Shown: positions 12,495-39,447, counted from the first letter of the stretch. The stretch is 64,000 bases of DNA from Alphaproteobacteria bacterium (GCA_965201115.1 OZ241745.1:258308-322307); one strand, 5' to 3'. Notes: generated by a model from the letters alone, not told the origin. Made by a program: numbers and translations.

Positions 12495-13396
12495 CGATTC
12501 GATGTCGAGGGCTCGAACGCAGCCGCGCGTTCGTCGGGGCCGGTCTTGGCGAGCTCGGTCGCCGGATCGCCGGCCACGCGGGTGTGGCGCAGGATGCGGA
12601 TTTCGCCGTAGTCGTAGGGCCGCGCCCGGTGCAGCACGCAGCGGTTGTCCCAGATCGCGGCATCGCCGGGGCGCCACTCGTGCCGCCAAACCCGCGGCGG
12701 GCGGCAGGCCCGATCGACAAGCCCGTCGAGCAGCGCCCGCGCCTCCGCGTCGTCGAGGCCCGGAATCCGGTAGGCGTGCCGGCCGATAAACAGCGATTTG
12801 CGCCCTGTCGCCGGGTGCGTCTTGACCAATGGCCTGAGCGGGGCGCCCTTGGTGTGATAGCCGTAGCCCGCGCCGGTTTCGATCTCGTAGCCCAGTTTCG
12901 CCTGCGACTGATAGAGCGAGTGGTATGCGCTCAGGCCCGAAACCCGCGCGCGCTCATCCGCGTCCAGCGCGTCGTAGGCGGCGCGCATGTCGGCCCACTC
13001 GGTTTCGCCGCCCCACGACGGAACGGTCTGCGCCGACAGCACCGAGGCCTTCGCCGCGAGCGGCATGTACGAACTGTCGGTATGCCAACCCTCGTTGCCG
13101 CGGAGCGTCTTGTAGCGGAACTCGCCGGGGCCGAAGGTTTCGCCGTTGTCCTTGCGGTTGCCGATCGTCACCGCCTTTGCGTCGGGGTCGTCGCGCAGCA
13201 ACTCGAGCTCGCCGAAGCGGCGGGCGAACGCGATCTGCTCGTTCTCGCTCATGTTTTGGCCGGGGAAGATCAGCACGCCGTATTCGTGAAAGGCGTCCTC
13301 GACGGCGCGCCACGCGCCGCCGTCCATGGCGGCGAGCGCGATTCCGGTCACGGTCGCGCCCAGCGTGGCGCCCGTCGGCGTAACGATCGGTTGCAC
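12491..13396 (-). CDS. TauD/TfdA-family alpha-ketoglutarate-dependent dioxygenase (taurine dioxygenase-like)
   Basis: 301 aa. HTD facial-triad context (GWHTDSSY), ...H late in the protein, RxxxR C-terminal motif. GTG start with a GGGAGGA Shine-Dalgarno sequence. The stop codon lies inside MITE TIR-R. Confidence 0.8.
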
Positions 13397-13434
13397 GATG
13401 CGTCCTCCCGGCGGCGCGGCCCGCGCCGTCGAAC

Positions 13435-13510
13435 TGGCGTCCCCTACGGGACTCGAACCCGTGTTTTCGGCGTGAGAGGCCGATGTCCTGGACCGCTAGA
13501 CGAAGGGGAC
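13435..13510 (-). tRNA. tRNA-Glu (CTC)
   Basis: The reverse complement reads GTCCCCTTCGTCTAGCGGTCCAGGACATCGGCCTCTCACGCCGAAAACACGGGTTCGAGTCCCGTAGGGGACGCCA, closely matching the canonical tRNA-Glu architecture with a CUC anticodon. Confidence 0.9.
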
Positions 13511-13735
13511 CCCGTTGGCGTCGCCGCGCAGCATACCGGCCCGGCCGCCCCGCCGCAAGCCCGGCGTTCTTCGCGGCGCGCAAACGCGCCGAAGGCCGCC
13601 ATGAGGGCCGCGCCGCCCGCAACGCCCTGCCGGCGCCGCGCCGCGCGAATCGGGCGGCAGGGTTTGACCGCGCGCGCCGGGCGCGCTACAACGCGCCCCG
13701 CCCGCGGCTGCCGCGGCGCCTCGACGGGAGTACAC

Positions 13736-14350
13736 ATGAGCAAGCGCAGAACCTCGAAATACAAACTCGACCGCCGGCTGGGGGTCAATCTCTGGGGCCG
13801 GGCGAAGAGCCCGATCGACCGCCGCGAATACGGCCCGGGCGAACACGGCCAGCGCCGCCGGAAAATATCGGACTTCGGCGCGCAGCTGCTCGCGAAGCAG
13901 CGGCTCAAGGGCCATTACGGCGAAATCTCCGAGAAACAGTTCCGCCGCATCTACGCCGAGGCCGTGCGGCGGCGCGGCGACACGGTCGAAAACCTGGTCG
14001 GCCTGCTTGAGCGCCGCCTCGACATGGTCGTCTATCGCATGAATTTCGCCCCGACGATCTTCGCCGCGCGCCAGATCGTCAACCACGGGCATATCCACGT
14101 AAACGGCGTGCGGGTCACCGTGCCCAGCTACCGCGTGAGCGACGGCGACACGGTCGAGGTGCGCGCCAAGTCGAAGCAGCACCCGCTCATCATGGACGCG
14201 GCGCAAAACCCCGAACGCGACGTGCCGGACTATTTCGAAGTCGATCCCGACAAGCTCAGGGGCTCGATGCTGCGCCAGCCGCTGTTCGGCGACATCCCCT
14301 ATCCGGTGCAGATGGAGCCGAACCTCGTCATCGAATACTACTCGCGCTAG
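13736..14350 (+). CDS. rpsD: 30S ribosomal protein S4
   Basis: 204 aa. [26 protein letters not shown]...[16 protein letters not shown] is highly conserved S4. GGGAG Shine-Dalgarno sequence; ATG approx 13736. Confidence 0.95.
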
Positions 14351-14371
14351 CGCCGCACCGCGCGCGCGGGT

Positions 14372-14448
14372 TGGTCGGGGCGGCCGGATTCGAACCGGCG
14401 ACCCTCTGCTCCCAAAGCAGATGCGCTGCCAGGCTGCGCCACGCCCCG
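14372..14448 (-). tRNA. tRNA-Pro (TGG)
   Basis: The reverse complement reads CGGGGCGTGGCGCAGCCTGGCAGCGCATCTGCTTTGGGAGCAGAGGGTCGCCGGTTCGAATCCGGCCGCCCCGACCA, with a UGG anticodon. Confidence 0.9.
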
Positions 14449-20717: not shown

Positions 20718-21846
20718 TTAGCCAGCATTTCTCATACGGGTGGTTGCCGTGCGGTTTGTGCGGCTTTGGTTGGCGTGTGCGTGCGTATTTTCGTGGTTGG
20801 GGGCCTTGGTGGGCGTTTTCGGAGGCGCGTTGGGGCGGTCCGCCGTTTGGCGGCAGGTCGCGTTCCGGGCTGTTCCTGCGTTGTCGAGGGGAAGGGCGAG
20901 AGGGGCCGCGTTACGCCGTGGCGGCGGATAAGCGCTCGCAGGCGATACGGAACTCGCGCTGGAAGGGATGCGCGGCGTTCATGGCGATCTTGACGCGGCG
21001 CACCGCGACGCGGACCCAAGCGCCGATCTTGAGCGGTTTCAGGCGCAGGCTCCCGCATGTGGCGACCGCCGATGCGGCGCAGTGCGCACAGCAACACATA
21101 AGCCATGGACGCGAACCGCAGGCGCAGCCGGTTGGTCCGCATGGCCCGTGTCGACGTGCGGTCGGCGAACAAGTCGAGTTGGCGCTCCTCGATCCGGTTC
21201 TCCATCTCGCCGCGTTGGCAGTAGAGCCGCGCGTAGAGATGCCGGGCGCGGACCCGATGGGTTGCAATCGAGGTGACGACGAAACGCGGGTTGGCCTTGC
21301 CATGGGTCCACTCGGCCTTGGCGGCGACGCGGCGCGCAGCTCCAACTGTCGCGCGTCCTCCGCATGAAATCCTTGAAGCGGCGTTGCGGCTTGCCCGAAC
21401 CCGCGCTGTGCGCTTGCGCCGCCGCCGGTTCGGTCTCGACTTCCGCCACCGGACGGGGGGGGCCGCGCCAAGCCCAACGGGTAATCGACGCCGTTGGCCT
21501 GGCGCCATAAGTCGCATAAAGCGGAAGATAGCAATAGCCGCCGTAGTAGCCGTGGAAAAAACGACCCTCATGGCGACTGTGAAGCCGATCGTCCGTGGCG
21601 TCGAGATCGATAACCAGACGCGCCGGGGCCGCTTGTGCGCCTCCACAAACAGCGTCAGGAACAAATCCTCAATCGCCGCGCCGTCATGCGCGATCCGGCA
21701 ATACCGCGACGACCCCGCGCCCCCCAATTCAAGGCGGTTCAGCGTCGATTTGTCCGCAAGCGGCGCGCAGTCCGAACGACGCGACGCCAACTTCCCTGCC
21801 AAACGGCCATAACCGGATCGTGACGCAACGCATCATGGTCGTTCAG
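20718..21846 (-). mobile_element. IS1380-family insertion sequence, 3' portion only (right end plus transposase residues ~95 to C-terminus; degraded). Interrupted at 21846 by an IS5 element.
   Basis: Terminal sequence gttagccAgcatttctcatacgggt matches the left end of the intact copy at 63461. The transposase ORF 20732..21802 (MAGKLASRRSDCAPLADKSTLNRLELGGAG...YARLYCQRGEMENRIEERQLDLFADRTS) aligns to the second copy from about residue 95. The C-terminal third is out of frame. Confidence 0.6.
20732..21846 (-). pseudogene. IS1380-family DDE transposase, 5'-truncated by the IS5 insertion and frameshifted near the 3' end
   Basis: Reverse-complement identity with copy 2 (63800-63860) ends abruptly at 21846. 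The downstream translation degenerates into low-complexity R/P-rich sequence. Confidence 0.55.
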
Positions 21847-22522
21847 TGTTTGTATCATAATTCGGTCACTGTGATTTGGCTTTGGCCAGTCGCCTGACGA
21901 GGAGCTGGACGCTGGCGAGGAAGAGCCATGCGCGGGCGCTTTCGATGGCGGTTTCGAAGTCCCTGGCGAGGCGGCGGTTGCGATCGAGCCACGCCAGCGT
22001 GCGCTCGACTACCCAGCGTCTGCGCGGCAGTTCGAAGCCCGACGCGGCGTCGGAGCGCTTGACGATCCCGATTGTCCATTGCCCGCGACTGCGCGGTGCG
22101 GTTTCGAGTTTGGGGCCGGCATAGGCGCCGTCGGCGAAGACATGCCGCAGTTCCGGCCAGGTTGCCTGCGCCGACACCGGCAGGTCGGGCGCGCCATCGC
22201 GGTCCTGTCCATCTGCGGTCCGAACGCGCGCGGCGAGCGGAAAACCCGCGGTATCGGCGACAATATGGCGTTTGCGGCCCTTCACCCGCTTGCCCGCGTC
22301 GTAGCCGCGCGGCCCGCCGCTTTCCGTGGTCTTTACCGAGCGGCATGTCCGACTCGACAAGCCGCCACTCGTCATCGATGAGGTCGCTTGCATACCGCAG
22401 GTGCTTGCGCTCATACTGCGCGCGAGCGATTTCGGTCCACATGCTGTGCCTCGCTGGCTTGCTTCATCGCAACCGGCATACACAACATACTGAAATCACT
22501 CAACTCCATTTCGGTACAGACT
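21847..22522 (-). mobile_element. IS5-family (IS427 group) element with an internal ~230-bp deletion (non-autonomous remnant)
   Basis: OrfA N-terminus MWTEIARAQYERKHLRYASDLIDDEWRLVESDMPLGK runs directly, with a frame jump, into SVKTTESGGPRGYDAGKRVKGRKRHIVADT...ADGAYAGPKL...RRWVVERTLAWL...RLARDFE (OrfB DDE region). The ~75 aa normally between them (TTDLREV...QSVK) is missing. The right terminus atttcggtacagactctgag is at about 22502-22521. Confidence 0.6.
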
Positions 22523-22543: not shown

Positions 22544-24754
22544 TTAATCGCCCGCGGCCAGAGCGCGCCGGGCGGCGGACGCCCTGGAATCGTCCGGTCG
22601 CAGTTCCCAAATCCTGCGGCTTGCCGCCCATTTCATGAATGCGGGAACGTCGAACAGCGCGGCGCAGACGCGTTTGCGGCAGCGTTCGGGAAGCAACGCC
22701 TGGTAGCGTCCGGGCGCGACCGAAGCCTCGATGGATTCATAAAGCGACTTTACCGATTCCCGCAACACGGGCGCGCTGGAGACGGCCCGGCGCAATTCGC
22801 CCTCGCCGGGCCCGCCGCTCATGGCGATGCCGCCGAGCCCGGCCAATGGCCGCGGCGACGGCAGCAGGCTATCGAGAACGGTCTCGTAGGCGCTGCCGCC
22901 GAAATGCAGCCATAGCGGCTCGCCGTCGATAGACAGGATCGGCGCATCGTTGTCGCCGAAACCGAGTCCCCGGCGCACATGCGCCGCATATGCGCGCCCT
23001 GTAGGCGCACCGCGGGCCGTATAGCGGAACCCGCCGCGCAACCGGCCCGACTGTCGCGCCGTCAACAGGATTTCGCCTCGCATTATGCGCGCATCCCACA
23101 CGCGGCCGCCCAGGGCGACCCCCTTCTCGATGCCGGAGGGGGCGGCGACGCGGGCAACGATTTCGCCGGTTCCCGAGTCGACAACGGGTATTCCGGCTGC
23201 CGCCGAATCGAAGTTGTCGTGCATTCCGCGTGCGCCGTCGTCGAAAATATCGGCCCATTGTTCCCCGAGGACCAACCGACCCGGTTTACCCGGTTCGAGA
23301 TAGCCCGATTCGATCAACGCATCCAGAATCTCATCCGCCGTTCGATTCTCCGATTCCGGCCATACATCGTCGGCAAGAGCCAACAAGTCGGACCGGCGCC
23401 TGCCGCGCAAGCCGTTTTGAGCGACGAAACTCGCGGCTTGTTGAACGAAAACCGACCAGCGCCGGGCGTAGCCTTGCTGTTCGAGCAGGCCGTCCCTTGC
23501 CGACAACAGCATGGATGCGAAGGCCGCGACGTCCATTCCGTTGCGCGGCAGCGCGAGGACACGGGTGCGCCCGATGCGGCGGCCGGCGCGGCCGATGCGT
23601 TGGAGCAACGCCCGCGTTCCCGACGGAGCGCCGATCAGGGCGACGAAATCGACGTCTCCGATATCGACGCCGACTTCAAGCGTGGTCGTGGCCACCATGA
23701 CCGCGTCGCGGGACGACGAAAACGTGCGCTCCGCTTCTTCGCGCAAGTCGCGCTCGAGGCTGCCGTGATGCGCAAGCACCGTGACGTCTCGCCGGCGCCG
23801 CAGCCTGCCGCTCAAATATGCCGAAAGCGTGTCGCACAGTTCGCGACTGTGGACGAACACGAGAGCCTTGCGCATGGGCTTCGCTTCGTCCGCCGACATC
23901 GCCTGCCATAGCCGCCGCGCAACGGTCTCGTGCGCATTCGCGTCCCTGGCGACTTCGAGGCGCCGCGCCATCGTCGATACGGTATCGGCGGGCTCGACGA
24001 GCATCCATGCAGCGTTATCGGACGGGCCGAAAACGTCGATCTCCCGTGTGCCCGGAACGGGCGCCGCGACAGCGCCGGCGCCAAGCAGCCGTTCCGCCAG
24101 AGCGTCGGGCTCGCCGACCGTGGCGCTTCCGGCGCACATGCGAAGCTCCCCGCGCGCGCGTCGATCGGGCGGAGCTGTCAGGGCGCGAAGCCTCCGTAAC
24201 CGGCCCAACAACCAGACAAGCTGATCCCCGCGCGCGGTTCCGTCGAACAGATGGGCCTCGTCGATGAATACCGCTCGCACTTCGGCCAGGAGATGATCGA
24301 CGGTCTTGCCTTGTTCGACGACCGTGTCGCGTACCAACATCGAATCGAAGGACTCGGGTGTCGTGATTAGCACGAACGGTTGTTTATGCTTGTCGCGCCG
24401 GTCGCCGGTCTGCCGACCGCACGTCAACCCCATGCGTTCCAGAGGCGTTTCCAATCGAGCCGCGAGATCGTTGACCAATGATCGGGTCGGGGCAACGACA
24501 AGCAACCGAATTCTGCGGGCCGGATCGCCGCCGGCCTCGCGAAGCCGCGCGAGCAGGGGCGCCACAACAGCTTCGGTCTTCCCGGACGCGGTAGCGGACA
24601 CAACGAGCGCATTCTTGCCGGCGAGAATCGGCGCGATAGCGCGCCGCTGAATCTCCGTCAGCCGCCGAAAACTGCCGAAGAAAGCCGGGCCGGCGGAGCC
24701 CAGCCGCTTAACGATGTCAGCGTCGGAAACCATTGAGGCGCACTTTCGTCGCAC
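22544..24754 (-). CDS. Lhr-like DEAH-box superfamily-2 helicase (BrxHI-like); last gene of a five-gene operon
   Basis: 736 aa. Motif I ATASGKTEA, Ia VVAPTRSL, II FIDEAHLF, III, and VI QRIGRAGR. The Lhr-core-like C-terminal extension suggests BrxHI. The start sits 2 nt from the stop of the upstream ATPase gene. Confidence 0.75.
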   Translation of the reverse strand: MRRKCASMVSDADIVKRLGSAGPAFFGSFRRLTEIQRRAIAPILAGKNALVVSATASGKTEAVVAPLLARLREAGGDPARRIRLLVVAPTRSLVNDLAARLETPLERMGLTCGRQTGDRRDKHKQPFVLITTPESFDSMLVRDTVVEQGKTVDHLLAEVRAVFIDEAHLFDGTARGDQLVWLLGRLRRLRALTAPPDRRARGELRMCAGSATVGEPDALAERLLGAGAVAAPVPGTREIDVFGPSDNAAWMLVEPADTVSTMARRLEVARDANAHETVARRLWQAMSADEAKPMRKALVFVHSRELCDTLSAYLSGRLRRRRDVTVLAHHGSLERDLREEAERTFSSSRDAVMVATTTLEVGVDIGDVDFVALIGAPSGTRALLQRIGRAGRRIGRTRVLALPRNGMDVAAFASMLLSARDGLLEQQGYARRWSVFVQQAASFVAQNGLRGRRRSDLLALADDVWPESENRTADEILDALIESGYLEPGKPGRLVLGEQWADIFDDGARGMHDNFDSAAAGIPVVDSGTGEIVARVAAPSGIEKGVALGGRVWDARIMRGEILLTARQSGRLRGGFRYTARGAPTGRAYAAHVRRGLGFGDNDAPILSIDGEPLWLHFGGSAYETVLDSLLPSPRPLAGLGGIAMSGGPGEGELRRAVSSAPVLRESVKSLYESIEASVAPGRYQALLPERCRKRVCAALFDVPAFMKWAASRRIWELRPDDSRASAARRALAAGD

Positions 24755-24755
24755 G

Positions 24756-26153
24756 TCAGGCGTCGGCGCCTTGGGCCGCGATGTCGGGCGCGATATCCAA
24801 CAGCTCCACAGCCTCGCGAACGACGGTTCGCGGTACCGGGCGCTCGATATCGGTCAAGCGGCGCGCGTCGTGGCGTTCGGCGAGGGAATCGAGCTGGCTC
24901 TCGAGCCACTTGCGATCTACCGCCGCGGTGCGCTCCGGGTACGCCTGCCGGTACAAGTCGAAGACGCGTCGTAGCACATCCCGGATCTGCCGAAGGTCGG
25001 GTTCGACCGCCGAAAAGGCGTGCAAGTGCGAATCCTCAAAGCGCCGTTGCACGTCCCGCACGGCGTCCTCCCCGGTCGCCGTTTCGGCGCCCCCGGGCGC
25101 GCCGCCGAACGCAATTACGAGCGGCAGCGGATACCCGGAAACGACAAGGCGGGCCAACGCGGAAAGTAAATCGGCCCGGCGGTTTCGACGACCGGCGATC
25201 GCGGCGGCCCAGCCGGCGGTGCTTGCATATTCGACGTCGAGCTCATCGAGGATGACAAGCAGTCCCTTGGCGCCGACGCGCAACGCGCAAGCGGTCCACG
25301 CCTGAAGCAAATCGCAAAATCTGTCGGTGCGTTCGTGTACCCGGTGCGCCCTGATAGACGGAAGGCGGCCGTGGTACCGATACTTCAGCTGCCTGAACTT
25401 GTCTTGCGCCTGACTTGCGGACAGATCGAGCGTGAAATAATCTTCAAGAACCTGCAACGCCTCGGCGTCAGCCAGTACGCTTCCCGGGATCGTGCGAATT
25501 GCGGACGCAAGCATCTTCTCGCCCCGCGATGTCGGACGCCAGTTCCCGCTGTTCGCGCGTAACGACGGAAGCCACTCGCGCAATCCGCGCGGCGCCGCTT
25601 CGCCCGGCTTTCCGAGGGAACCGAGAAGCCTGCTCATGAGCGCCATGGGATCCGACAGCCGAACGCCCCCGCCGTCGAGAATCAGGGAGCTCGACGCCAT
25701 GCCCTTGCCGGATGCGATTGCGCGAAGCAGGGTCAACAGATGCGTTTTCCCGCTGCCCCATTCGCCTTCGACGAGTACCGCGCCGGCATCGCCGCCGACG
25801 GCGCGCGACACGATGCGCGCCATATCCGCCTCGATTCGCTCCGTTCCCGCGCTGAGCCGGCGAACATGCGCTTCAAGCGGTTGGCCGAGCCTCAACGCCA
25901 GCACGCCCTGGCGCGCTTCGATCTCGCTTTGCGACATGCTGGGCGGCGAGTCGCGTCCGCGCCCGGCGGCGTCGGCGCCTTGTACATCCGGCGCCGGCTC
26001 GGCGTTCGTATCCAGCCCGAGCTCGCGCGCCGGCACCCAATCCTTCATGTAGCCGAAATCGACGCAAGCGCGGGTTTGGGCGCCGCGATTCTCGACCGAA
26101 ACGATTTTACCTGTGCCGAGCGATGGATGCCAAACATCGTCTCCGGCTCTCAT
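24756..26153 (-). CDS. P-loop ATPase paralog 1 (DUF2791/BrxD-like) with an N-terminal UvrD-C-terminal/Tudor-like domain
   Basis: Start taken at MRAGDD, whose ATG overlaps the upstream gene's TGA (ATGA coupling). GDDVWHPSLGTGKIVSVENRG...VDFGYMKDW fits the GxxVxHxxFGxGxV Tudor-like pattern. Walker A GEWGSGKTHLL; Walker B LLVILDELD. Confidence 0.65.
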   Translation of the reverse strand: MRAGDDVWHPSLGTGKIVSVENRGAQTRACVDFGYMKDWVPARELGLDTNAEPAPDVQGADAAGRGRDSPPSMSQSEIEARQGVLALRLGQPLEAHVRRLSAGTERIEADMARIVSRAVGGDAGAVLVEGEWGSGKTHLLTLLRAIASGKGMASSSLILDGGGVRLSDPMALMSRLLGSLGKPGEAAPRGLREWLPSLRANSGNWRPTSRGEKMLASAIRTIPGSVLADAEALQVLEDYFTLDLSASQAQDKFRQLKYRYHGRLPSIRAHRVHERTDRFCDLLQAWTACALRVGAKGLLVILDELDVEYASTAGWAAAIAGRRNRRADLLSALARLVVSGYPLPLVIAFGGAPGGAETATGEDAVRDVQRRFEDSHLHAFSAVEPDLRQIRDVLRRVFDLYRQAYPERTAAVDRKWLESQLDSLAERHDARRLTDIERPVPRTVVREAVELLDIAPDIAAQGADA

Positions 26154-27457
26154 GGCTCGACGCCCTCGTTCTCGGCGCGCTGGAGTTCGCCGAACGAGCC
26201 CGCGTAACGCTCGGACAGCTCGTTGTCGGTAAATCGTTTCTCGCCATTGTTCTTTTGATACTCCAGCAACCCGGCCCAGCATTTGACATAAAGACGACGG
26301 GCATCTACGTCGAGGTTACGCTGCGAGGCTACGGCGGCAAGAGCGGTTGCGTTGGCCGACTGCATTCCGGCGTCGAATTCGTGTCCTGTAGCGTCCCGAC
26401 CGACGTCGATCAACTTGTGCCCGATATCGACAAGCAGCGTGCGCCGATCCTGGATATGCGCCAAATGCAACTGTGGCGCATAATCGTTATTCTCGTGGAA
26501 CGCCGAGCCCGACACCGCAAGTCGCATTTGCAACGCCGGGTAGCGAGGAAGTTCGTCCAGAATTTCGGAGGTCGCGGCGAAGATGCCGAATAACGGGATA
26601 CCGCCCTCGATTCCCGGCGCGTCGATCAGTACCCTCATTGCCGCCAAAACGCGCTGCAAAGCCCTGCCTCTGACATTGGTGAGGGTTTCGACTTCGTCCA
26701 GCAACAACGCCAGCCCATGAACGCCCGCCTGCGGCGCGAATCGATTCAGGGACCATAACATGTCTCTGCCGAAACGCTTTCTGTCGCCCGCTGTTATTCC
26801 GGCAAGCTTGAGCTCCGAACGCTCCTGTCTGTCGAGTGTGTCGATCTCGCCATCCAGCCATCGTATCGCGGCCTCGCCTCCGGGCGAATCCTCGTCGTCC
26901 TTCGCTTCCCGCAGCGCCGCGGCCATGACGCGACCGAATGTGCGCTCCGGATACGTTGTCTTTCCGACACTTGCGATCCACCTGTCGAGCGCGACCTCCG
27001 GGTCAGGAACGCCGCGTTCGGAAATTTCCTGTCGCTTCGTATGCAGAACCCGATGGAGCAGCCCGCGCAGCCCCGGATTCGAATATCCGGGCAGGGACAA
27101 TTGTTGGACCGTCTTGCCGTAGAGAGCGAAGGGATCGTCAACGCTGACCCCCGGCGCGCAGGCGACGTACGACACCGCAAAATTTTCGCGCAGCGCGCGT
27201 GCGCCGAGCGCCAGAAGAAAATGGGTCTTTCCGCCGCCGTAGGGCGCCAGGACGAGCTTGAAGTGCGCCGCCGAACGGCACAAATCGCGCAGATAGCGCT
27301 CAGTCAAGCGGTCCAGCCAGCCGTCGATGCCGACGGAATAGCGGGGAAGGGTATTCGAGGCGTCGGCGATGCCGCCGGGCGGCTTGCCGTTGGCCGCCAG
27401 GGTAGCCCATAGCTGGCGGGCTTGCGCCGCAGCCGTCTCGCGCTGTCCGTCAGGCAT
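26150..27457 (-). CDS. P-loop ATPase paralog 2 (DUF2791/BrxD-like)
   Basis: Walker A APYGGGKTHFL, Walker B LLLDEVE, 435 aa. The N-terminal WATLAANGKPP...SVGIDGWLDRL block is shared with paralog 3. 8-nt overlap with the upstream gene. Confidence 0.65.
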   Translation of the reverse strand: MPDGQRETAAAQARQLWATLAANGKPPGGIADASNTLPRYSVGIDGWLDRLTERYLRDLCRSAAHFKLVLAPYGGGKTHFLLALGARALRENFAVSYVACAPGVSVDDPFALYGKTVQQLSLPGYSNPGLRGLLHRVLHTKRQEISERGVPDPEVALDRWIASVGKTTYPERTFGRVMAAALREAKDDEDSPGGEAAIRWLDGEIDTLDRQERSELKLAGITAGDRKRFGRDMLWSLNRFAPQAGVHGLALLLDEVETLTNVRGRALQRVLAAMRVLIDAPGIEGGIPLFGIFAATSEILDELPRYPALQMRLAVSGSAFHENNDYAPQLHLAHIQDRRTLLVDIGHKLIDVGRDATGHEFDAGMQSANATALAAVASQRNLDVDARRLYVKCWAGLLEYQKNNGEKRFTDNELSERYAGSFGELQRAENEGVEP

Positions 27458-28607
27458 GGTTCGCGATCCTTTCCAACGCGCCGCCGGCCGCCATTTTGAT
27501 ATAGTCGCGTACCCGGCCTTGATGTATGTCTGTTGCGTACTCGTTTGCGCGCGCGTCCAGGCGCTCCAGCAAGCCTGCCCGCGCGTCGGAAGGCATGCCG
27601 GCCTCGGCGCCGATGTCCGCGATGCGGGCGGCGATTTCGCGGTAGAACAGGGGGTCGTCGGGCCCGGGATCGGTCAGCTCGTCCAACGCTACCCAGATCG
27701 CGCGCGGATTCGGAGGGGGCGGCGGCGTCGCTCGTTCGATACGCTGCCTCAAAGCGCCGAGATAGCCGCCGGTGGTTTCGATGAAGTCTTCCGCCGCCGC
27801 ATAGTAGACGACGCAACCGCCGATAGCGCCGACCGCCATGTAATCGACGAAAGTTCGGAGATGTGCCAGGCGGCGCAGTATTCGTGTGCGCCCGCCCCTG
27901 TTCAGCGCCGTCTCGGTTTCGTCGAACAGCACGACGAGGCCGGAATAGCCGAGCGCGCGCGGTAGCGACAACAGGGATCGCAACCAGGCGCCCGCGTTCT
28001 TCTGCATAAGCTTGCCGAGGGGCCGCGGCAACCAACGGTGTTGCCGGCACAGGCGCCCCGGCGCCGCGTTATGCCCGCGGGCCGCCTCCAACAGCGCCGC
28101 GAGCGAGTCGCACAGCTCGTCTTCGTCCGTCAGGGCGGCGGCCGCATACGACCGCGCCAGATTGCGGTAGTCGGGCGCCAGCGTCTTGTCGGCGCAAAGG
28201 CGCTCGCTCGCCGGGGCGTTTGCGATAACGCGAACCACGCCGGCGTCGCCGACGGACGTCGGTTTCCCCGGAGGTTTCATACGATGCGCGATCGAGCGAT
28301 AAGTCTCGTCCAGAGTGTCGAACGGGCTTCTGTCCAGGCAATCGACGTATGCAGTAACGAAGCCGTATTCGCACGCGCGGTGTTCCACGGCGCGGAGGAA
28401 ATGCGTTTTCCCGCGTCCGTACGGCGCATGGATAAACTGCATCTCGCCCCCGCCGGCGGCAGCGAAGGGAAGGGTCTCTTCGGCGATACGCCGGAGCGCG
28501 CCATCGATGCCGGCAGACAGGCGGATCGTTGTTTCGCCGTCTGCCGGAGCGACGCCGTTCGCCGCCAAGGCGGCCAGGATATGCCTCGGGTTCATGGCGC
28601 GGCTCAT
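27450..28607 (-). CDS. P-loop ATPase paralog 3 (DUF2791/BrxD-like)
   Basis: Start taken at MSRAMNPRHIL (ATGA overlap with the upstream stop). Walker A APYGRGKTHFL, Walker B VVLFDETE, about 385 aa. Confidence 0.6.
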   Translation of the reverse strand: MSRAMNPRHILAALAANGVAPADGETTIRLSAGIDGALRRIAEETLPFAAAGGGEMQFIHAPYGRGKTHFLRAVEHRACEYGFVTAYVDCLDRSPFDTLDETYRSIAHRMKPPGKPTSVGDAGVVRVIANAPASERLCADKTLAPDYRNLARSYAAAALTDEDELCDSLAALLEAARGHNAAPGRLCRQHRWLPRPLGKLMQKNAGAWLRSLLSLPRALGYSGLVVLFDETETALNRGGRTRILRRLAHLRTFVDYMAVGAIGGCVVYYAAAEDFIETTGGYLGALRQRIERATPPPPPNPRAIWVALDELTDPGPDDPLFYREIAARIADIGAEAGMPSDARAGLLERLDARANEYATDIHQGRVRDYIKMAAGGALERIANHA

Positions 28608-29416
28608 TGCATCTTCTCGATCCACAGCGATGCCAGCTGATGGCCGAGCCCCCCTTGCGCCAGGTTGGGCAAGGTAAGCGCGGCGCCGCGGCCGATGGCC
28701 GCCATGTTCGGCGTCTGGCTCGCCAGGCGTTCATGGTCGTTCGCATACCAGCCGCCGCGCCCGAAACGGGCCATGTCGTATATGAACTGGCACATCGAAT
28801 AGTCCTTGAATTTCTTTCTGTTGGGTTGCTTCCTGAACGCGCTGTCGCGATACTGGCGCTCAAGCACGACGTGCAGATACAGCGTTCGGATGGGGGTCTT
28901 GCCGCCGCGGTCCTCGCCGCGCGCCCGCGCACACCCCAAGGCGTTCTTGACCGTCGCGAAAAACTCGTCGCGCGCAAACGGCGCGCCGTCGAGTTTCTCC
29001 TTCGCATCCCGGATACGGGCGAACAGGCGCGCGCCATCGGTCTCGTCGAACATGTCCAGCTTCTCGCTGCCGAGATACAACGTCACGCGCGCAAGGCGGT
29101 ACTGGACCTTGAAGCAATCGACCCAGTCGTAATTCTGCAACCTGCGCGTCGGCCATCCCGCGTCGCCCGCGGCGTTGTGCAGCGCTTCCCTGCGCTTCGC
29201 GAGTTTGTCTTCGACGCGGCGCTTGAGCGCGTCCCGGCGCTTTTCGAGGGTTTCGACCAACCCGCTCTCCGAAACCTCGCGTACGGCGTCGATGGTCTTG
29301 TCGATCAAAGACAGCAAGGGCAGGTCGTCGTCCGGCTTGGCGCGCGACAAGGCATCGGTCGTGCGCTTTGCCTTGGCGACGCCCTTCTTTATGGCCTGAA
29401 TTTCGTCGTCGAGCAC
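28604..29416 (-). CDS. hypothetical protein, first gene of the ATPase-helicase operon (coiled-coil N-terminus, no recognisable domain)
   Basis: GTG start with a GGGAGG Shine-Dalgarno 8 nt upstream. The track ORF extends to 29773 but that extension runs through a REP element and is R/P-rich junk. About 270 aa, with WVDCFKVQYRLARVTLYLGSEKLDMFDETDG...YLHVVLERQYRDSAF. Confidence 0.5.
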   Translation of the reverse strand: MLDDEIQAIKKGVAKAKRTTDALSRAKPDDDLPLLSLIDKTIDAVREVSESGLVETLEKRRDALKRRVEDKLAKRREALHNAAGDAGWPTRRLQNYDWVDCFKVQYRLARVTLYLGSEKLDMFDETDGARLFARIRDAKEKLDGAPFARDEFFATVKNALGCARARGEDRGGKTPIRTLYLHVVLERQYRDSAFRKQPNRKKFKDYSMCQFIYDMARFGRGGWYANDHERLASQTPNMAAIGRGAALTLPNLAQGGLGHQLASLWIEKMQ

Positions 29417-29579
29417 CGGGCGCCTCCCATGCGGCGGTCCAGCGGGTAACGCGCGCGTTCCGCCGTTGCAGCGCCGACGATAGCGGCCGCCGCGCGCCGC
29501 GCAACCCTGTCGCCGGGGGCGCGATGCGGTGGAGGGGGGCGGCCGGGCAACCGGTCGGCATCGTTCCGCCCGCGCAGTG

Positions 29580-29915: not shown

Positions 29916-31541
29916 GTGACGCAGACACTTTACATACTTGCCGCCTATCTGGTTTTCGCCGGGCTGTTCATGCGGTTGCGGGTGGGGCCGGTGGTGGGGC
30001 TGCTGGTGGCCGGCGCGGCCATCGGGCCGTTCGGCGCCGGGCTGGTGAGCGACGTCGAGGCGGTCTCGACCCTCGCCGAGCTCGGCATCCTGTTCCTGCT
30101 GTTCAACGTCGGGCTCGAGATCAAGTTCGAGCGCCTGCGGCTGTTCGGGTGGCGCGTCTATGCGCTCGCGGTGGGGCAGGTGGCGCTCACGGCGGTCGCG
30201 TTCGCGCTGGCGGCGCGGGGGCTGGGGCTGGCCCCGGAAGCCTCGGCGCTCGTCGGCGGCGCGCTGGCGCTGTCCTCCACCGCCGTGGCGCTGCAGGTCC
30301 TGGCCGACCTGGGGCGGATGCTCACGCAGCTCGGCCGCCTCGCCATCGCCACGCTGCTCGTCCAGGACCTCGCGGTGGGGCCGCTGCTCGCGGCGGCGAA
30401 TGTGCTGGCCGCGGGCGAGGACATCCGCGAATCGCTGTTGCACATGGCCGTGGGCGGCGCGATCGCGGTGGCGGCGGTCGTGGCGCTGACGCGGTTCGCC
30501 CTGCCGCGCGCCATTCGGCTGGTGGGTTCGCTCGGCGGGGGCGAGCTGTTTCTCGGCCTCGTGCTGCTGGCGGTGTTGGGCGCCAGTCAGGCGACCGAAC
30601 ATGCAGGGCTTTCCGCCGGCCTGGGCGCGTTTCTCGCCGGGCTCCTGGTGGCGGACACCGAATACCGCCACCAGATCGCGGCGGATATCGCGCCGTTCCG
30701 CGGGCTTCTGCTCGGGTTGTTCTTCATGGCGGTGGGCATGAGCACCGACCTGACGCTGGCGCTCGACCGCATTGGCGCGGTGGCGGCGATAGCCGGCGCG
30801 CTTCTGTTCGGCAAGGCGGCCCTGCTTGTCGCGATCGCGCTGGCGCTCGGCTATTCGCTGCGGCTCGCGCTTCAGCTCGGCGTGTTGCTCGGGCAGGGAA
30901 GCGAGTTCTCGTTCGTGATCGTGGCGGCCGCCATGGCCGGCGGGCTGCTGACCGACGGTCTCGGCGATACCCTGACCGTGGCGATCGCGCTGTCGATGCT
31001 GGCGGCGCCGCTGGCCGCCGCGGCGGCGCGGCGATTTCTCGACCGCGTGGAGGGCGCCGCGGCGAGCCCGCTCTCGGACATCGACTCCGACACCGCCGCG
31101 CTGCGCGGCCACGTGGTGATCGTCGGGTTCGGGCAGGTAGGCAAGGCGCTGGCGCGCCATCTGATCGGGCTCGGCGTGTCGGTGGTGGTGCTCGACGCCG
31201 ATTCGCAGCGGGTCCGCGACGCGCGCAAGCGGGGGCTGCCGGTATATTTCGGCAACGCGGCGCGCACCGATGTGTTGCGCGCGGTTCATGTCGATCGCGC
31301 GCGGCTGGCGGTGCTGGCGCTCCCCGACGGCGATCTGACCGCGCGCGTGCTGGCGACGATCCGGCGCATCGCCCCCCGCACGCGCCTCGTCGCCCGCGCC
31401 CCGCACGACACCGACGCCGACATGCTGCGCCGCGCCGGCGCCGAGACCATCGTTGTCGACAGTTTGGGCACCGCGGTAGAACTGGCCGAACGCTCGATCG
31501 TGCTGCTCGACCTCCCTGCCGAAGCGCGCACGGCGGCATGA
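29916..31541 (+). CDS. CPA2-family monovalent cation:proton antiporter with C-terminal RCK/TrkA-N domain (KefB/KefC-like)
   Basis: 541 aa. 12-13 TM helices, then HVVIVGFGQVGKALARHL (Rossmann GxGxxG) and an RCK domain. GTG start. Confidence 0.85.
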   Translation: MTQTLYILAAYLVFAGLFMRLRVGPVVGLLVAGAAIGPFGAGLVSDVEAVSTLAELGILFLLFNVGLEIKFERLRLFGWRVYALAVGQVALTAVAFALAARGLGLAPEASALVGGALALSSTAVALQVLADLGRMLTQLGRLAIATLLVQDLAVGPLLAAANVLAAGEDIRESLLHMAVGGAIAVAAVVALTRFALPRAIRLVGSLGGGELFLGLVLLAVLGASQATEHAGLSAGLGAFLAGLLVADTEYRHQIAADIAPFRGLLLGLFFMAVGMSTDLTLALDRIGAVAAIAGALLFGKAALLVAIALALGYSLRLALQLGVLLGQGSEFSFVIVAAAMAGGLLTDGLGDTLTVAIALSMLAAPLAAAAARRFLDRVEGAAASPLSDIDSDTAALRGHVVIVGFGQVGKALARHLIGLGVSVVVLDADSQRVRDARKRGLPVYFGNAARTDVLRAVHVDRARLAVLALPDGDLTARVLATIRRIAPRTRLVARAPHDTDADMLRRAGAETIVVDSLGTAVELAERSIVLLDLPAEARTAA

Positions 31542-31655: not shown

Positions 31656-32963
31656 ATGTTGCTGCGTTTCGGCGTGTCGAACCATCTGTCGATCCGCGAC
31701 TTTCAGGCACTGCTGCTGACGCCTGCCGCGTTGCGGGAACCGGCGGAGGGGTTGATCTCGTGCCCGCCCGCGCCCGGAGGCAAACTGCTTCCCGCCGCCG
31801 TCATCTACGGCGCCAACGCGTCCGGCAAGACGAATTGCATCCACGCCATGCATTTCATGCGCCATCTGGTGTTGGGTTCTCATGCCCACGGGAAGCCGGG
31901 CGAGAATGTCCCGCGCTATCCTTTCAAACTCGATCCGGCCTGCATCGATACGCCGTCGCGCTTCGAAATCGATTTCGTCCTCGACGACGGCGTGCGCTAC
32001 CATTACGGTTTCGAGGCGTCCGACAAGGCGTTCGAATCGGAATGGTTGTACGCCTTCCCCAAGGCGCGCCGCCGGATATTGTTCGAGCGCGACGGAAGCG
32101 ACTATCGTTTCGGCCGCTGGTTGGCAGGCAAAAACGAGATCGTTCGGGGCTTGACCAGACCCAACAGCCTGTACGTTTCGGCGGCGGCGCAGAACGGGCA
32201 TGAGCAGCTGTCCGGTATCTTCGGGTACTTCGAAGCGCTTCATGGCGTTGGCGCTACCGACGTTACGGGCGTGGAGGGCATATTACGGTTCGCCGGAGAC
32301 GAACCGGACCGTCGAACGATCGATTTTCTCGAGCATGTCGGCATTGCGGTATCGGGATACAGAAAAAAGAAAGACGATATGTACGCCAGGATCGGGAACG
32401 ATATGAAAAAAATCGGGGCCATGACCGGCATTCCCGAGGGAGCGGCGGCGTCCGAAGCGTTGCATGACCGCTTTGCGATACTGGCGAGGGACGGGGAACT
32501 GCAACTCGCTCATCGCAGCTGGGCGGGCAACGACGTTTACCTTGAGCTGGAACGGGAAAGCGCGGGCACGCGGCGGCTGCTTCTCGTATTGCGCGAGACG
32601 TATCGTGCGCTGGACAAGGGCTTGCCGTTGGCGATCGACGAACTGGACGCCAGCTTGCACACTCAGGCCGCCAAATCGGTGCTCGGCCTGTTTTGCTCTC
32701 ATGAGACGAATCCGAACGGCGCGCAACTGATCGCGACGACTCACGATACCAACCTGATGAAGGTCCGGATGTCGACGCGGGACCGGATTCTGAGGCAGGA
32801 TCAAATCTGGTTCGCGGAGCAGGGGCGGGATGGCGAGACGACCCTGTATCCGCTTACCGATTACCGGACTCGCAAGGGCGATAATATCGAGAGGGAGTAC
32901 TTGCAGGGCCGTTACGGCGCGACGCCTCTCGATGATATTGTCACGGGCCATGGCGCGGCGTAG
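31656..32963 (+). CDS. AAA_21/AAA_15-type ABC-like ATPase (AbiLi-like abortive-infection ATPase)
   Basis: Walker A at the N-terminus (IYGANASGKTN); D-loop/Walker B LAIDELDASLH; H-loop ATTHDTNL. 435 aa. Confidence 0.75.
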   Translation: MLLRFGVSNHLSIRDFQALLLTPAALREPAEGLISCPPAPGGKLLPAAVIYGANASGKTNCIHAMHFMRHLVLGSHAHGKPGENVPRYPFKLDPACIDTPSRFEIDFVLDDGVRYHYGFEASDKAFESEWLYAFPKARRRILFERDGSDYRFGRWLAGKNEIVRGLTRPNSLYVSAAAQNGHEQLSGIFGYFEALHGVGATDVTGVEGILRFAGDEPDRRTIDFLEHVGIAVSGYRKKKDDMYARIGNDMKKIGAMTGIPEGAAASEALHDRFAILARDGELQLAHRSWAGNDVYLELERESAGTRRLLLVLRETYRALDKGLPLAIDELDASLHTQAAKSVLGLFCSHETNPNGAQLIATTHDTNLMKVRMSTRDRILRQDQIWFAEQGRDGETTLYPLTDYRTRKGDNIEREYLQGRYGATPLDDIVTGHGAA

Positions 32964-33621
32964 CCGCAAGGACGGCCGCGGCGATCCGATAGCGTTCGAA
33001 CGCCGTCGTTCCGTTCGGGATCGGAGGCGGCGCTTCGTTCTGTTTTGCGAAGGCCGCAACACGGAACCGGGGTACTTCGGAGCGGTTCGGCGGTTCTGCG
33101 CGGGAGGCGCCGTCGCCATACGGATTGTGCAAGGTCTCGGCGTGCCGATGGCGGTTGCGGAGCGCGCCGCGGATGAAAGCAGGCAACTTCGTGCAAGGGG
33201 CGCGGGTCGCGGCGGGGACCGGATCTGGGCGGTGTTCGACCGTGACAGCCACCCGGAATATGAGGAAGCGGCGGTGCTTTGCGAGCGGCACGGGGTCGAA
33301 GTCGCGCGTTCGGACCCGTGCTTCGAGCTCTGGTTGATTCTCCATATCGAGAAATACGACAAGGCGTGCGGCAATAGCGACGTGCAAAGGCGTCTTGAGA
33401 CGCTGCGCCCCGAATACGATCGCAAAGGCGCCAAGACGGCGGACTTTACCGGCTTGATTCGCTGTGCAGAGGATGCGGAAGAACGCGCGGCCATGCAATT
33501 GCGTTTGCGCGAACGGGAAGGAAAGCCGTTCGGCAATCCTTCGACCACGGTCGGGAATTTAACCCGCGCCATTCGCGAGGCGAACGGGCAAGCGCGTTGG
33601 AGCGCGCCGCCCGCCCGATAA
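32950..33621 (+). CDS. RloB-like protein (AbiLii-like; predicted Toprim/OLD-type nuclease partner)
   Basis: FVLFCEGRNTEPGYF matches the RloB N-terminal signature (xLIVCEGEKTEPxYF). Conserved DRD and E motifs (WAVFDRDSHPEYEE, CFELWLILH). Overlaps the ATPase stop by 14 nt. Confidence 0.7.
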   Translation: MARRSRKDGRGDPIAFERRRSVRDRRRRFVLFCEGRNTEPGYFGAVRRFCAGGAVAIRIVQGLGVPMAVAERAADESRQLRARGAGRGGDRIWAVFDRDSHPEYEEAAVLCERHGVEVARSDPCFELWLILHIEKYDKACGNSDVQRRLETLRPEYDRKGAKTADFTGLIRCAEDAEERAAMQLRLREREGKPFGNPSTTVGNLTRAIREANGQARWSAPPAR

Positions 33622-36931: not shown

Positions 36932-38827
36932 ATGAAATACCTGTCGGACGCCGCAATACGGTGGGCTATCGACCGGTTGCGAAAAGGGTCGCACCCGTTT
37001 CTCGGCATCACCTTTCTGGCGTGCAAATCGGCAGGCTTGCCTGTCGGTTCGACCGCGCGCGTGCGCCTGGACCGGGTGACGCGGGAGCATCTCGACCGCC
37101 ACCACCGTTTGGCGCCGCAAAGCGACTGTTATTTTCAGCCGTTCGGCGGGAAGAAGGCGTGGGTGGGGCCAAAGTACCCATCGAAGGGGCTCCAGCCTTT
37201 TAATACGGGAAAATTCGCGCGCGCATTCCGGCATCCCGGGGGAACACAGGAATGGGGTTTCGTCGAGAACTACGTCGATGAGATTGCCGACGTCGGGCGA
37301 TACGCCTTGGATCTTCAAGCTGTATCGGTATGGGTGCTGAAGGATCGGAAGTGGTCCGACCGCGACTCCTTGGAAACGGTGATCGATTGTTTTCTCGAGT
37401 CGTACAGAATTACAAAATACGAGCGTGACAATCTGTTCTCCATGGATGGGTTTGGAATGGCGGATGAATTGGCAAACGAGGATGTATCGCATTGCGGTAT
37501 ATTCGACGAGCGCCCGCCGGATTTGAGAGGTATCGCATTTCGATACGGCGCCCCGCCGGATAACAAGGTCGACAAGAAGCGCTCTCGACTGCTTCGTTTG
37601 GCGCTGTCGGATGTCGGACCGTCCAAAAGACTAAGCATGGATTTGGGGAAACGTCTAACGCTAATTGCAGGCGACAACGGTTTGGGGAAATCGTTTATTC
37701 TGGATGTTATATGGTGGGCAATAACAGGAAATTGGCTCGGACGGCCCGCGTTGCCTTTCGACGTGTTAGAGAATGGCTGCAACAAGGTCGCAGCAACGAT
37801 AGAGTTTAAGGTTGCGATGGATGAGGCGCCGAGTGTAACAGCGAAGGGTTATTTTCATCGGGATACCCATTCGTGGAACATGGACAGCGAAAGACCCCGG
37901 TTATCTTCCTTGTGTATTTTCGTCAGGGTCGATGGTTCGTTTGCGGTCGCCGATGAAATGCGAGCCAGATTTGGGAACGGCAATCGATCCGGCATCGGTT
38001 ATTTTACGAGGGCCGAAGTATGGGATGGCAAACCGGGGGAGATCGAGGGTATGGTTCGGGACTGGATCGCCTGGCAGCTGTCTCCCGACCGCGAGACATT
38101 CTCGAAATTGGAGAAAGTTCTTGCCTGCTTGTCCCCGGAAGATCTAGGGCGTATAAAGCCGGGGGATCCGGCGCGGCTTCCCGGAGACCCGCGGCAAATA
38201 CCGACTATCGTTCATCCCTACGGGACTGTCCCTGTCGTGTTCTCGTCCGCCGGCGTTCAGAGTATTCTTCTTCTGACATATATGATGACATGGGTATGGC
38301 ATGAACACAAGATCGCCGCCCGGCAGCTGGGCGAGGAGCCGTTTGGAAGGATGACAATAATCCTGGACGAAGTAGAGGCCCACCTGCACCCGCGATGGCA
38401 GAGGACTGTTTTGCCTGCGTTGATGGGAATCGGCGATCTTTTGCAGAAAGATATAGCGGTGCAGGTCGTTGCTTCTACGCACTCCCCTATGGTGTTGGCG
38501 TCCATGGAGACGATGTTCTCGCATGGCAGCGATGTACTGTATCATCTGCTTCTAAAGGATTCGGCGGTGGTATTGGAGGAAATCGAGTTTCAAAAATACG
38601 GTGATGTATCGGCGTGGCTGATGTCTTCGGTTTTCGGGCTGCGGCATGCGCGCTCGCGCGAGGCAGAGGAGGCGATAGAGGCAGCAAAAAAAGCGCAGCT
38701 GTCGAGCATGGATGATAAATCGGAGGTAGAGAATATATCCAATAAATTGAAACGTGCATTGGCGGGCGACGATCCGTTTTGGCCGCGGTGGATATTCTTT
38801 GCGGAAGAAAGGGGGGTATCGTTATGA
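36932..38827 (+). CDS. AAA_15/21-type ATPase (Septu PtuA-like) with an additional ~240-aa N-terminal domain of unknown function; located in a low-GC island
   Basis: Walker A LIAGDNGLGKSF sits at about residue 245 rather than at the N-terminus. Walker B/D-loop MTIILDEVEAHLHP; H-loop VVASTHSP. 631 aa. Local GC is markedly lower than flanking DNA. Confidence 0.65.
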   Translation: MKYLSDAAIRWAIDRLRKGSHPFLGITFLACKSAGLPVGSTARVRLDRVTREHLDRHHRLAPQSDCYFQPFGGKKAWVGPKYPSKGLQPFNTGKFARAFRHPGGTQEWGFVENYVDEIADVGRYALDLQAVSVWVLKDRKWSDRDSLETVIDCFLESYRITKYERDNLFSMDGFGMADELANEDVSHCGIFDERPPDLRGIAFRYGAPPDNKVDKKRSRLLRLALSDVGPSKRLSMDLGKRLTLIAGDNGLGKSFILDVIWWAITGNWLGRPALPFDVLENGCNKVAATIEFKVAMDEAPSVTAKGYFHRDTHSWNMDSERPRLSSLCIFVRVDGSFAVADEMRARFGNGNRSGIGYFTRAEVWDGKPGEIEGMVRDWIAWQLSPDRETFSKLEKVLACLSPEDLGRIKPGDPARLPGDPRQIPTIVHPYGTVPVVFSSAGVQSILLLTYMMTWVWHEHKIAARQLGEEPFGRMTIILDEVEAHLHPRWQRTVLPALMGIGDLLQKDIAVQVVASTHSPMVLASMETMFSHGSDVLYHLLLKDSAVVLEEIEFQKYGDVSAWLMSSVFGLRHARSREAEEAIEAAKKAQLSSMDDKSEVENISNKLKRALAGDDPFWPRWIFFAEERGVSL

Positions 38828-39447
38828 TTCCGGTGCGGCGTCAGCCGGAGTATCGGGAGTTCGATAAGGAAGTTCGTCAACCGGGTCTGCGATTTCTGAA
38901 AGCAAATCCACGGCCGAATAGCAGGGAGTTCGCGGAACATGAGTACTGGCGGAAGGCGCACTCCCAATTAAGGCATGTATATGGGGGCTTGTGCGCATAC
39001 ACATCGCGTTACATCGTCGACGTCGGCGAGGGATCTGTCGACCATTTTCATCCGAAAAGCAAGTTTCCTGATCTTGCGTATGAGTGGTGTAACTATCGGC
39101 TCGCAAGACGGAAAGTTAATAATTATAAAGGCGACAAAATTGGAATAATAGATCCGTTCGTAGTGCAATCGTCGTGGTTTATACTTGAGTTTCCGGGCTG
39201 TTTGGTACGGTCGGGGATCGATCTCGATGAGAAAACGGAGAATCGTGTGGAAAAATCGATAGAAGTATTGCGATTGAACAAGGACGACAGGTTGGTTCAG
39301 GAGAGATACAACCATTTGAGAGACTATGTGTCCGGAAACTTGACATTGGACTACCTTGACCGCCGTTACCCGTTCCTGTCGAAAGAGATCGGAAGACAAG
39401 GATTGAGCAAGAAAAAGTTGCGGGAAATGTTCAAACGTCCGAAATAA
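38824..39447 (+). CDS. HNH endonuclease (Septu PtuB-like, retron-type small HNH)
   Basis: GLCAYTSRYIV...VDHFHPKSKFPDLAYEWCNYRLARRKVNNYKGD gives the HNH layout C...C...DH...N...C. 207 aa. 4-nt overlap with the ATPase gene. Confidence 0.65.
   Translation: MIPVRRQPEYREFDKEVRQPGLRFLKANPRPNSREFAEHEYWRKAHSQLRHVYGGLCAYTSRYIVDVGEGSVDHFHPKSKFPDLAYEWCNYRLARRKVNNYKGDKIGIIDPFVVQSSWFILEFPGCLVRSGIDLDEKTENRVEKSIEVLRLNKDDRLVQERYNHLRDYVSGNLTLDYLDRRYPFLSKEIGRQGLSKKKLREMFKRPK

Follow-up and report, generated by a model that had tools for sequence, protein, structure and literature searches.

In the bacteriophage exclusion (BREX) systems the ATPase BrxD and the helicase BrxHI form a dyad reported to be specific to BREX-2 (type 2), and the 2026 BREX survey mentions neither a stand-alone nor a triplicated form of it (PMC12839542). 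BrxD is classed among the AAA+ (ATPases associated with diverse cellular activities) ATPases of the origin recognition complex (ORC)/Cdc6 clade, and a role in loading or activating BrxHI has been proposed for it (PMC12839542); MtsA, an AAA+ ATPase of the BREX-related system MANTIS, loads DNA onto its partner enzyme (10.64898/2026.09.23.753747). Shango, which consists of SngA (with a TerB domain), the ATPase SngB and the DEAD/DEAH helicase SngC, is experimentally anti-phage (10.1101/2022.11.11.516204, 10.1101/2022.05.11.491447). Here we analyse a five-gene operon that encodes three BrxD-like ATPases and one such helicase. It lies in a 64,000-nucleotide stretch of DNA from an Alphaproteobacteria bacterium (GCA_965201115.1 OZ241745.1:258308-322307), hereafter the window. 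A preliminary description of the window, made from the sequence alone, took the BrxD–BrxHI pair of BREX types 2 and 6 as the precedent for this operon; the BrxD and BrxHI models do score best on its three ATPases and its helicase, but Shango, the closest stand-alone analogue, had been overlooked.

On the combined analyses described below, the operon is probably an autonomous, horizontally transferred ATPase–helicase module, kin to Shango and to the BREX-2 BrxD–BrxHI dyad, whose most probable function is directed against phages or other mobile elements.

Composition of the operon

The operon consists of five minus-strand open reading frames (ORFs) lying head to tail between 22544 and 29416, transcribed in the order leader, ATPase A, ATPase B, ATPase C and helicase (Table 1). 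For the leader, A, B and C the translations agree in full with the gene calls of a public 3,674,140-bp contig, and the gene boundaries are therefore independent of the present reading. Three of the four junctions, read directly from the DNA, are overlaps of a stop with a start codon: ATGA between leader and A (28604-28607) and between B and C (26150-26153), and the 8 nt ATGCCTGA between A and B (27450-27457). These overlaps are as quoted when the genes were first proposed to be translationally coupled. The gap before the helicase, however, is not 2 nt; it is 1 nt with the GTG start at 24754 or 22 nt with the ATG start at 24733 (alignments of helicase orthologues start near residue 8). The GC content of the operon, 0.63-0.68, is slightly under that of most of its surroundings (~0.70-0.72). 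A promoter and terminator scan of 22-30 kb predicted no more sites than expected from shuffled sequence and did not place the promoter.

All three ATPases belong to Pfam family PF10923 (BrxC_BrxD, formerly DUF2791), with 78.0 bits for A (E=9e-22), 92.4 for B (4e-26) and 52.8 for C (4e-14) against a gathering threshold of 22.2, and their orthologues in related loci are annotated as PF10923 too. The best PADLOC model is BrxD in each case (1e-23, 2e-23 and 4e-10 for A, B and C, respectively), with SngB of Shango matching more weakly (1.5e-6, 8.3e-9 and 7.4e-5). Their description as mutually divergent holds, since pairwise identity is 29-36%: 32% over 301 aligned positions for A and B, 36% over 92 for B and C, and a barely detectable 29% over 63 for A and C. 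ATPase B is the best conserved of the three, with at least 301 homologues, and all 120 of those listed are at least 50% identical to it. No relative of the ATPases was found in the PDB by sequence, nor by a profile search with ATPase B.

The Walker A and Walker B motifs are YGRGKTH and LFDETE in ATPase A, YGGGKTH and LLDEVE in B, and WGSGKTH and ILDELDVE in C. The strings quoted in the preliminary description were correct, and they are conserved in 14-15 orthologues per paralog. For A the motifs are kept in 16 sequences; the exception is the locus L020, with FDETG at the final position of Walker B. The Walker A core (GxGKT/S) and the D-E pair of Walker B are kept in all three paralogs and in all orthologues, so none of the paralogs is a degenerate subunit, and by motif all three should be catalytically intact. 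In a neighbour-joining tree each of A, B and C has a clade of its own, and the branching inside the three clades is alike, which argues that the triplication is ancient and that the operon has been inherited as a block. Canonical BrxD and SngB lie no farther from A, B and C in this tree than A, B and C lie from one another.

ATPase C differs from BrxD and SngB, neither of which has its N-terminal domain, probably a Tudor domain of the UvrD/PcrA type. Residues ~1-45 (window positions 26019-26153) form a small conserved domain with the motif MxxGDxVxHxxxGxGxI...VDFGY. A profile built from 12 orthologues matches the solved Tudor domains of UvrD/PcrA in 9dqs (2.5e-5), 7egs (1.6e-4) and 6yi2 (2.6e-4), and further in 4c2t, 9dci and 5dma (overall range 2.5e-5 to 2.4e-3); UvrD/PcrA proteins make up eight of the nine matches listed for this N-terminal profile. 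The motif shared with UvrD/PcrA is GDxVxHxxxGxGxI...VxF, and six of their solved structures are matched by the profile. The Pfam model PcrA_UvrD_tudor (PF21196) is matched by 7 of the 12 orthologues at E<=1, below its cut-off, and is the commonest Pfam match among them, followed by the CarD/TRCF RNA polymerase interaction domain (RID) and MutS2-associated SH3 models. In UvrD/PcrA the domain sits at the C-terminus of a superfamily 1 (SF1) helicase, whereas here it forms the N-terminus of an AAA+/P-loop ATPase. A Tudor-like module had been noted earlier and is indeed present, but it is borne by the third ATPase in transcription order and not by the first. The Tudor domain of PcrA/UvrD binds RNA polymerase (PMC5397179, PMC8318588), and that of ATPase C points to RNA polymerase as a possible partner of the module.

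The helicase matches the PADLOC models BrxHI (5e-76) and SngC (6e-59) over residues 29-504, and its closest solved relative is the mycobacterial Lhr core 5v9x (1.8e-25); 7lhl matches at 4.6e-25, and both align over residues 25-418. Motifs I, II (DEAH), III and VI are invariant in 15 orthologues. Its best NCBIfam match is the ligase-associated DNA damage response DEXH box helicase (DEXH_lig_assoc), at 162.6 bits against a cut-off of 850, and the Lhr-type model PRK13767 gives 147 bits against 849. No Pfam match was found past residue 393, and by BLAST the last third of the protein resembles neither BrxHI nor SngC. A profile of this C-terminal region aligns co-linearly but weakly with the C-terminus of SngC (hhalign E=1.6e-4, probability 50%) and more weakly still with that of BrxHI (E=5.7e-3). 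Judged by these comparisons, the protein is a BrxHI/SngC/Lhr-like core joined to a lineage-specific C-terminal region. The earlier assignment as a superfamily 2 (SF2) DEAH helicase with an Lhr-core-like C-terminus is thus borne out for the DEAH motif and for an Lhr-like core (residues 25-418) only. What is shared with Lhr is the SF2 DEAH core with motifs I, III and VI; the C-terminal 300 residues have no sequence match to Lhr, and the gene is embedded in an ATPase operon and not in a repair context. The hidden Markov model (HMM) searches place neither the ATPases nor the helicase in a housekeeping family, as PF10923 is passed by the former (78, 92 and 53 bits) and BrxHI, SngC and Lhr are matched by the latter.

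The main alternative draws on both the Tudor domain and the helicase core. The operon could be an accessory genome-maintenance module, an RNA-polymerase-associated ATPase–helicase, acquired horizontally by some lineages, for clearing R-loops or stalled transcription complexes or for dealing with DNA damage. Mycobacterial Lhr is the solved protein closest to the helicase, and the best NCBIfam match is a ligase-associated DEXH box helicase; moreover, UvrD/PcrA use the same Tudor domain in transcription-coupled repair and R-loop suppression (PMC8318588). However, the repair-helicase model of NCBIfam is reached at only 163 of 850 bits, the defence models BrxHI and SngC score higher, and no ligase or repair genes are linked to the cassette.

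The leader, 270 aa long, had been described as having no recognisable domain, and it matches no Pfam, NCBIfam or PADLOC model (Pfam and PADLOC at E<=0.1). Its structure model, obtained with a predicted local distance difference test (pLDDT) score of 86.7 and a predicted template-modelling (pTM) score of 0.76, consists of a three-helix bundle (~residues 1-85) followed by a beta-meander and a winged-helix-like alpha/beta domain (86-270). Foldseek with this model found no match in the PDB (best E=0.94); a model of the domain only gave weak winged-helix matches. Going by these weak matches, the leader may be a DNA-binding or adaptor subunit. The idea that it is an effector nuclease was dropped, because no nuclease or other enzyme fold was recovered in the model.

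Conservation and spread

A k-mer-filtered search with the leader returned 17 relatives, which is an underestimate, as a full HMM scan of 1.84 billion representatives gave 197 clusters at E<=1e-3, 59 of them at E<=1e-30. Among the 17 first-found relatives, every readable contig holds the same cassette, with different flanks each time, and in every readable locus the leader family is linked to the ATPase–helicase pairing. When the leader motif was scanned against 185,579 species-representative genomes, it was matched in 13, a lower bound. The taxa comprise Alphaproteobacteria, Gammaproteobacteria including Thiocapsa imhoffii DSM 21303, which is a cultured carrier, Methylobacillus, Vicinamibacterales and other Acidobacteriota, as well as Syntrophobacteraceae (Desulfobacterota), Planctomycetaceae and Verrucomicrobiae.

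In tblastn searches with the window proteins the order leader-A-B-C-helicase was strict in 18 of 20 loci, and the taxa represented include Alpha-, Beta- and Gammaproteobacteria, Vicinamibacterales/Acidobacteriota and Verrucomicrobiae. The remaining two are short contigs, one of Syntrophobacteraceae with leader and A only and one of Planctomycetaceae with the leader only. In the related loci the best match of each window paralog is the gene in the corresponding position, and further gene-called loci show the same five-gene order. Identities to the window proteins are 35-58% for the leader, 39-57% for A, 41-57% for B, 29-48% for C and 41-63% for the helicase; even in the closest cassette, in the Alphaproteobacteria metagenome-assembled genome OZ241350.1, the leader is just 58% identical. 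The five genes therefore recur in fixed order wherever the contig is long enough, across six phyla, which answers the question of co-occurrence that the preliminary description had left to gene-neighbourhood searches. Judged by this conservation, the five-gene operon is a real unit that is spread horizontally.

A four-gene variant, composed of a leader, two BrxD-like ATPases and a helicase, is found at L025:1824-7805 and L029:9001-15038. The leaders of this variant are remote members of the leader family (HMM E ~1e-8 and 2e-5) and its second ATPase is longer, at 535-567 aa. The Tudor motif recurs on the helicase-proximal ATPase of L029, and the corresponding ATPase of L025 begins with a comparable extension. 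Ahead of the variant leader, L025 also has an uncharacterised gene of 593 aa that is truncated by the end of the contig.

Some copies of the five-gene cassette are damaged or incomplete. In L023:3250-8925 an IS21/phage-integrase element interrupts ATPase C at 157 aa, and type I restriction-modification (RM) genes follow; in L009:5383-6466 ATPase A is split by a frameshift; and in L011 the cassette ends within ATPase B, after ~12640.

Relation to BREX and Shango

We found no core BREX genes with the cassette. PglZ had no PADLOC match among the scanned window proteins and no PglZ Pfam family occurs among the neighbours in related loci; tblastn with Streptomyces PglZ likewise gave no match, either in the window or across 25 related loci. 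In the Pfam lists and in tblastn with Streptomyces BREX-2 proteins, the window and the sequence within 10 kb of each cassette lacked PglY/BrxC and PglW as well. The one signal resembling PglX comes from the generic methyltransferase domain of a type IIG enzyme (8835-12029), which is 10 kb from the cassette and is not conserved in other cassette loci. We thus rejected the possibility that the operon is a fragment of a BREX locus, there being no PglZ, BrxC/PglY or PglX in the window or the 25 related loci and the cut-off of the NCBIfam BrxD equivalog NF033438 (350 bits) being far from reached (A 84.3, B 85.0 and C 36.7 bits). This agrees with the initial view that the operon is not part of a complete BREX type 2 or 6 system. 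Since the flanks vary and PglZ/BrxC are never present, the cassette is an autonomous module.

A weaker form of the BREX connection would make the operon a detached accessory of BREX type 2 or 6, with the core genes PglX, PglZ and BrxC elsewhere in the genome. The best-scoring models are indeed BrxD and BrxHI, the dyad is otherwise reported as BREX-2-specific (PMC12839542), and the window covers only 64 kb of a 3.67-Mb chromosome. We nevertheless regard this as extremely improbable: similarity to PglZ/PglY is lacking in the window and within 10 kb of the cassette across the 25 loci, the BrxD equivalog is missed widely, canonical BREX-2 has one BrxD without a Tudor domain, and the triplication, the Tudor fusion and an always co-occurring private leader family define a separate lineage. 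A reference BREX-2 locus (L026) illustrates both sides of the comparison. Its ATPase gene lies directly upstream of its helicase gene, as in the five-gene operon, but it has a single BrxD with no N-terminal extension, as opposed to three ATPases, a Tudor fusion and a leader. Identity of the operon proteins is 23-30% to BrxD and 34% to BrxHI, the latter over the helicase core only.

Shango has the same stand-alone outline of a non-enzymatic leader, an ATPase and a helicase, and like the five-gene operon it encodes no nuclease or methylase. SngC matches the helicase both with its PADLOC model (6e-59) and in the C-terminal profile alignment (E=1.6e-4) given above (Shango reference locus L027). 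In contrast to SngA, which has a TerB domain, the operon leader has none and shows no BLAST similarity to an Aeromonas TerB-N protein. Shango has one ATPase in a three-gene operon, whereas the five-gene operon has three and the four-gene variant two. Moreover, the BrxD and BrxHI models outscore SngB and SngC on the operon proteins, whose identity to SngB/SngC is 28-30%.

MANTIS/Gao_RL was considered and rejected, as its DUF499 ATPase, DUF3780 protein, methyltransferase and helicase-nuclease match nothing in the operon. Among the papers of the library searched, none describes a stand-alone or triplicated BrxD–BrxHI module, and PADLOC v2 has no model for this architecture and none for the leader; to this extent the architecture is, as had been suspected, undescribed. 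The building blocks are known; new are the independence from BREX, the fusion to a Tudor domain, a leader family private to the cassette and three paralogous ATPases that co-evolve.

Proposed function and genomic neighbourhoods

The related loci place the cassette in varied surroundings. In L001:8925-18522 it lies between two oligopeptide-type ATP-binding cassette (ABC) permease genes (BPD_transp_1; OppC_N/BPD_transp_1), with spacers of 96 and 228 bp and no mobility gene, and looks like a clean insertion into an operon; McrBC is found 7 kb away. In Thiocapsa imhoffii (L002:1-9937; NRSD01000007.1) a phosphorothioation-dependent restriction module adjoins the cassette directly upstream, with a 3'-phosphoadenosine-5'-phosphosulfate (PAPS) reductase gene and three large genes that match SspF (1e-25), SspG (2e-17) and DndH/SspH (6.5e-58). 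HEC-01 lies directly downstream of the cassette in L024, with an IS91-family transposase nearby; L023 has the type I RM genes and the IS21/integrase insertion; and a Schlafen/AlbA_2 ATPase is near the cassette in L004. In L003, L004, L005 and L007 the cassette occupies one spot, between UxuA-type and MR_MLE-type genes of a sugar-acid cluster in four metagenomic contigs, which points to repeated integration at this site within one lineage. In L003 and L007 several of the genes are broken up, by either long-read assembly errors or decay. The varied flanks, together with the defence and mobile neighbours, would fit mobile defence cargo.

If the module does act in defence, it might work as follows. 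Translational coupling would make A, B and C stoichiometrically, and the three would form, with the winged-helix-like leader, a hetero-oligomeric ATP-driven complex. The Tudor domain of C could tether this complex to RNA polymerase or to another partner with a helicase-interaction motif. Recognition of foreign or aberrant nucleic acid would lead the complex to load or activate the Lhr/BrxHI-like 3'-5' helicase, which may then disrupt replication or transcription of the invader or expose its DNA to host nucleases. Complex formation, tethering to RNA polymerase, helicase loading and the immune function are what we infer. A specific form of this scheme, which we regard as distinctly doubtful, is nuclease-free immunity coupled to transcription: an ORC-like AAA+ heterotrimer would sit on RNA polymerase via the Tudor domain and, with a Cdt1-like winged-helix subunit, load an Lhr-type helicase onto invader DNA or R-loops, acting by unwinding and not by cutting.

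Several observations speak against this proposal. Its main weakness is the lack of an effector, since the operon encodes no nuclease, toxin, methylase or other modification enzyme. Searches of 72,556 plasmids and of the IMG/VR viral contigs, on which defence systems often travel, did not turn up the cassette; the plasmid proteins that match ATPase B, with 27-29% identity, are ordinary ATPases of the BrxD, Shango or other kinds. In L003, L005, L007, L021, L022 and L029 the flanks are metabolic or unrelated and there are no defence neighbours. In addition, ATPase C of the window taken alone scores 17.2 bits with PF21196, for which the cut-off is 23.9.

The lack of a nuclease or toxin and the several loci among metabolic genes would also suit the genome-maintenance alternative raised above. 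However, carriers are very few and scattered (a lower bound of 13 among 185,579 species representatives), and the module occupies variable sites, is at times disrupted by insertion sequences (IS) and often stands beside restriction or abortive-infection systems, all of which is typical of defence cargo and not of repair genes; we hold a maintenance role to be unlikely, if conceivable. A further possibility is that the cassette serves an unrecognised mobile element as its replication or maintenance module, in which the ATPases would be ORC/Cdc6-like initiators acting with a winged-helix origin-binding protein and a helicase; this we consider very unlikely.

Whatever its function, the five-gene family is a stand-alone and more elaborate form of the BrxD–BrxHI/SngB–SngC pairing, without methylase, phosphatase or TerB partners. 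Should it prove anti-phage, it would be a new type of system, with three co-evolving paralogous ATPases and no nuclease, and a tractable model for the control of Lhr-like helicases by BrxD-type ATPases. Unwinding by an RNA-polymerase-docked complex, if true, would give a first mechanistic handle on BrxD–BrxHI and Shango. If the family is not a defence system, it would represent an unrecognised accessory module of transcription-associated genome maintenance.

The surroundings of the operon in the window are listed in Table 1. The adjoining transposase fragments, of the DDE_Tnp_1 and DDE_Tnp_1_4 families, are decayed (20732-22483) and form the IS graveyard noted beforehand. AbiLi/AbiLii are parted from the operon by the Kef-type antiporter gene only, and the Septu pair forms a patch of GC 0.575-0.608 within surroundings of ~0.70, which is consistent with recent acquisition. 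The proposed defence island is thus present as regards AbiL and Septu, but it is a loose one, because housekeeping genes are interspersed, also between AbiL and Septu. As the window contains a complete rRNA operon (57304-62453, or to 62590 as in Table 1), it is chromosomal.

Table 1. Features of the operon and of the rest of the window
Feature	Position	Strand	Remarks
Leader gene	28604-29416	-	270 aa, GTG start
Shine-Dalgarno-like GGGAGG	29423-29428	-	6 nt upstream of leader GTG; read from sequence
ATPase A	27450-28607	-	385 aa, BrxD-like P-loop/AAA+
ATPase B	26150-27457	-	435 aa, BrxD-like
ATPase C	24756-26153	-	465 aa, N-terminal UvrD/PcrA-type Tudor (probable), variable linker, BrxD-like ATPase
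Helicase	22544-24754	-	736 aa, SF2 DEAH; alternative ATG start 24733
DDE_Tnp_1 fragment	21866-22483		directly downstream of operon
DDE_Tnp_1_4 fragments, frameshifted	20732-21802		downstream of operon
Kef-type K+/H+ antiporter gene	29916-31541		divergent from operon, upstream
AbiLi/AbiLii pair	31656-33621	+	1.4e-82 and 1.2e-22; Pfam AAA_21 and RloB
Septu PtuA/PtuB	36932-39447	+	2e-211 and 2e-63
Type IIG restriction-methyltransferase	8835-12029		1064 aa; type IIG model 1.4e-46, PglX 1.8e-12
Three tRNA genes	12242-12314, 13438-13510, 14375-14448		after type IIG gene
Complete rRNA operon (16S, two tRNAs, 23S, 5S, one tRNA)	57304-62590	+	

The stretch holding the type IIG gene and the tRNA genes (8835-14448) is possibly an integration hotspot. 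An ORF at 12320-14350 overlaps the tRNAs, has no matches and is probably no gene. A 2071-aa ORF on the minus strand (41522-47737), which has no Pfam or PADLOC match at all, shows a strong coding signature (GC content at third codon positions, GC3, of 0.88).

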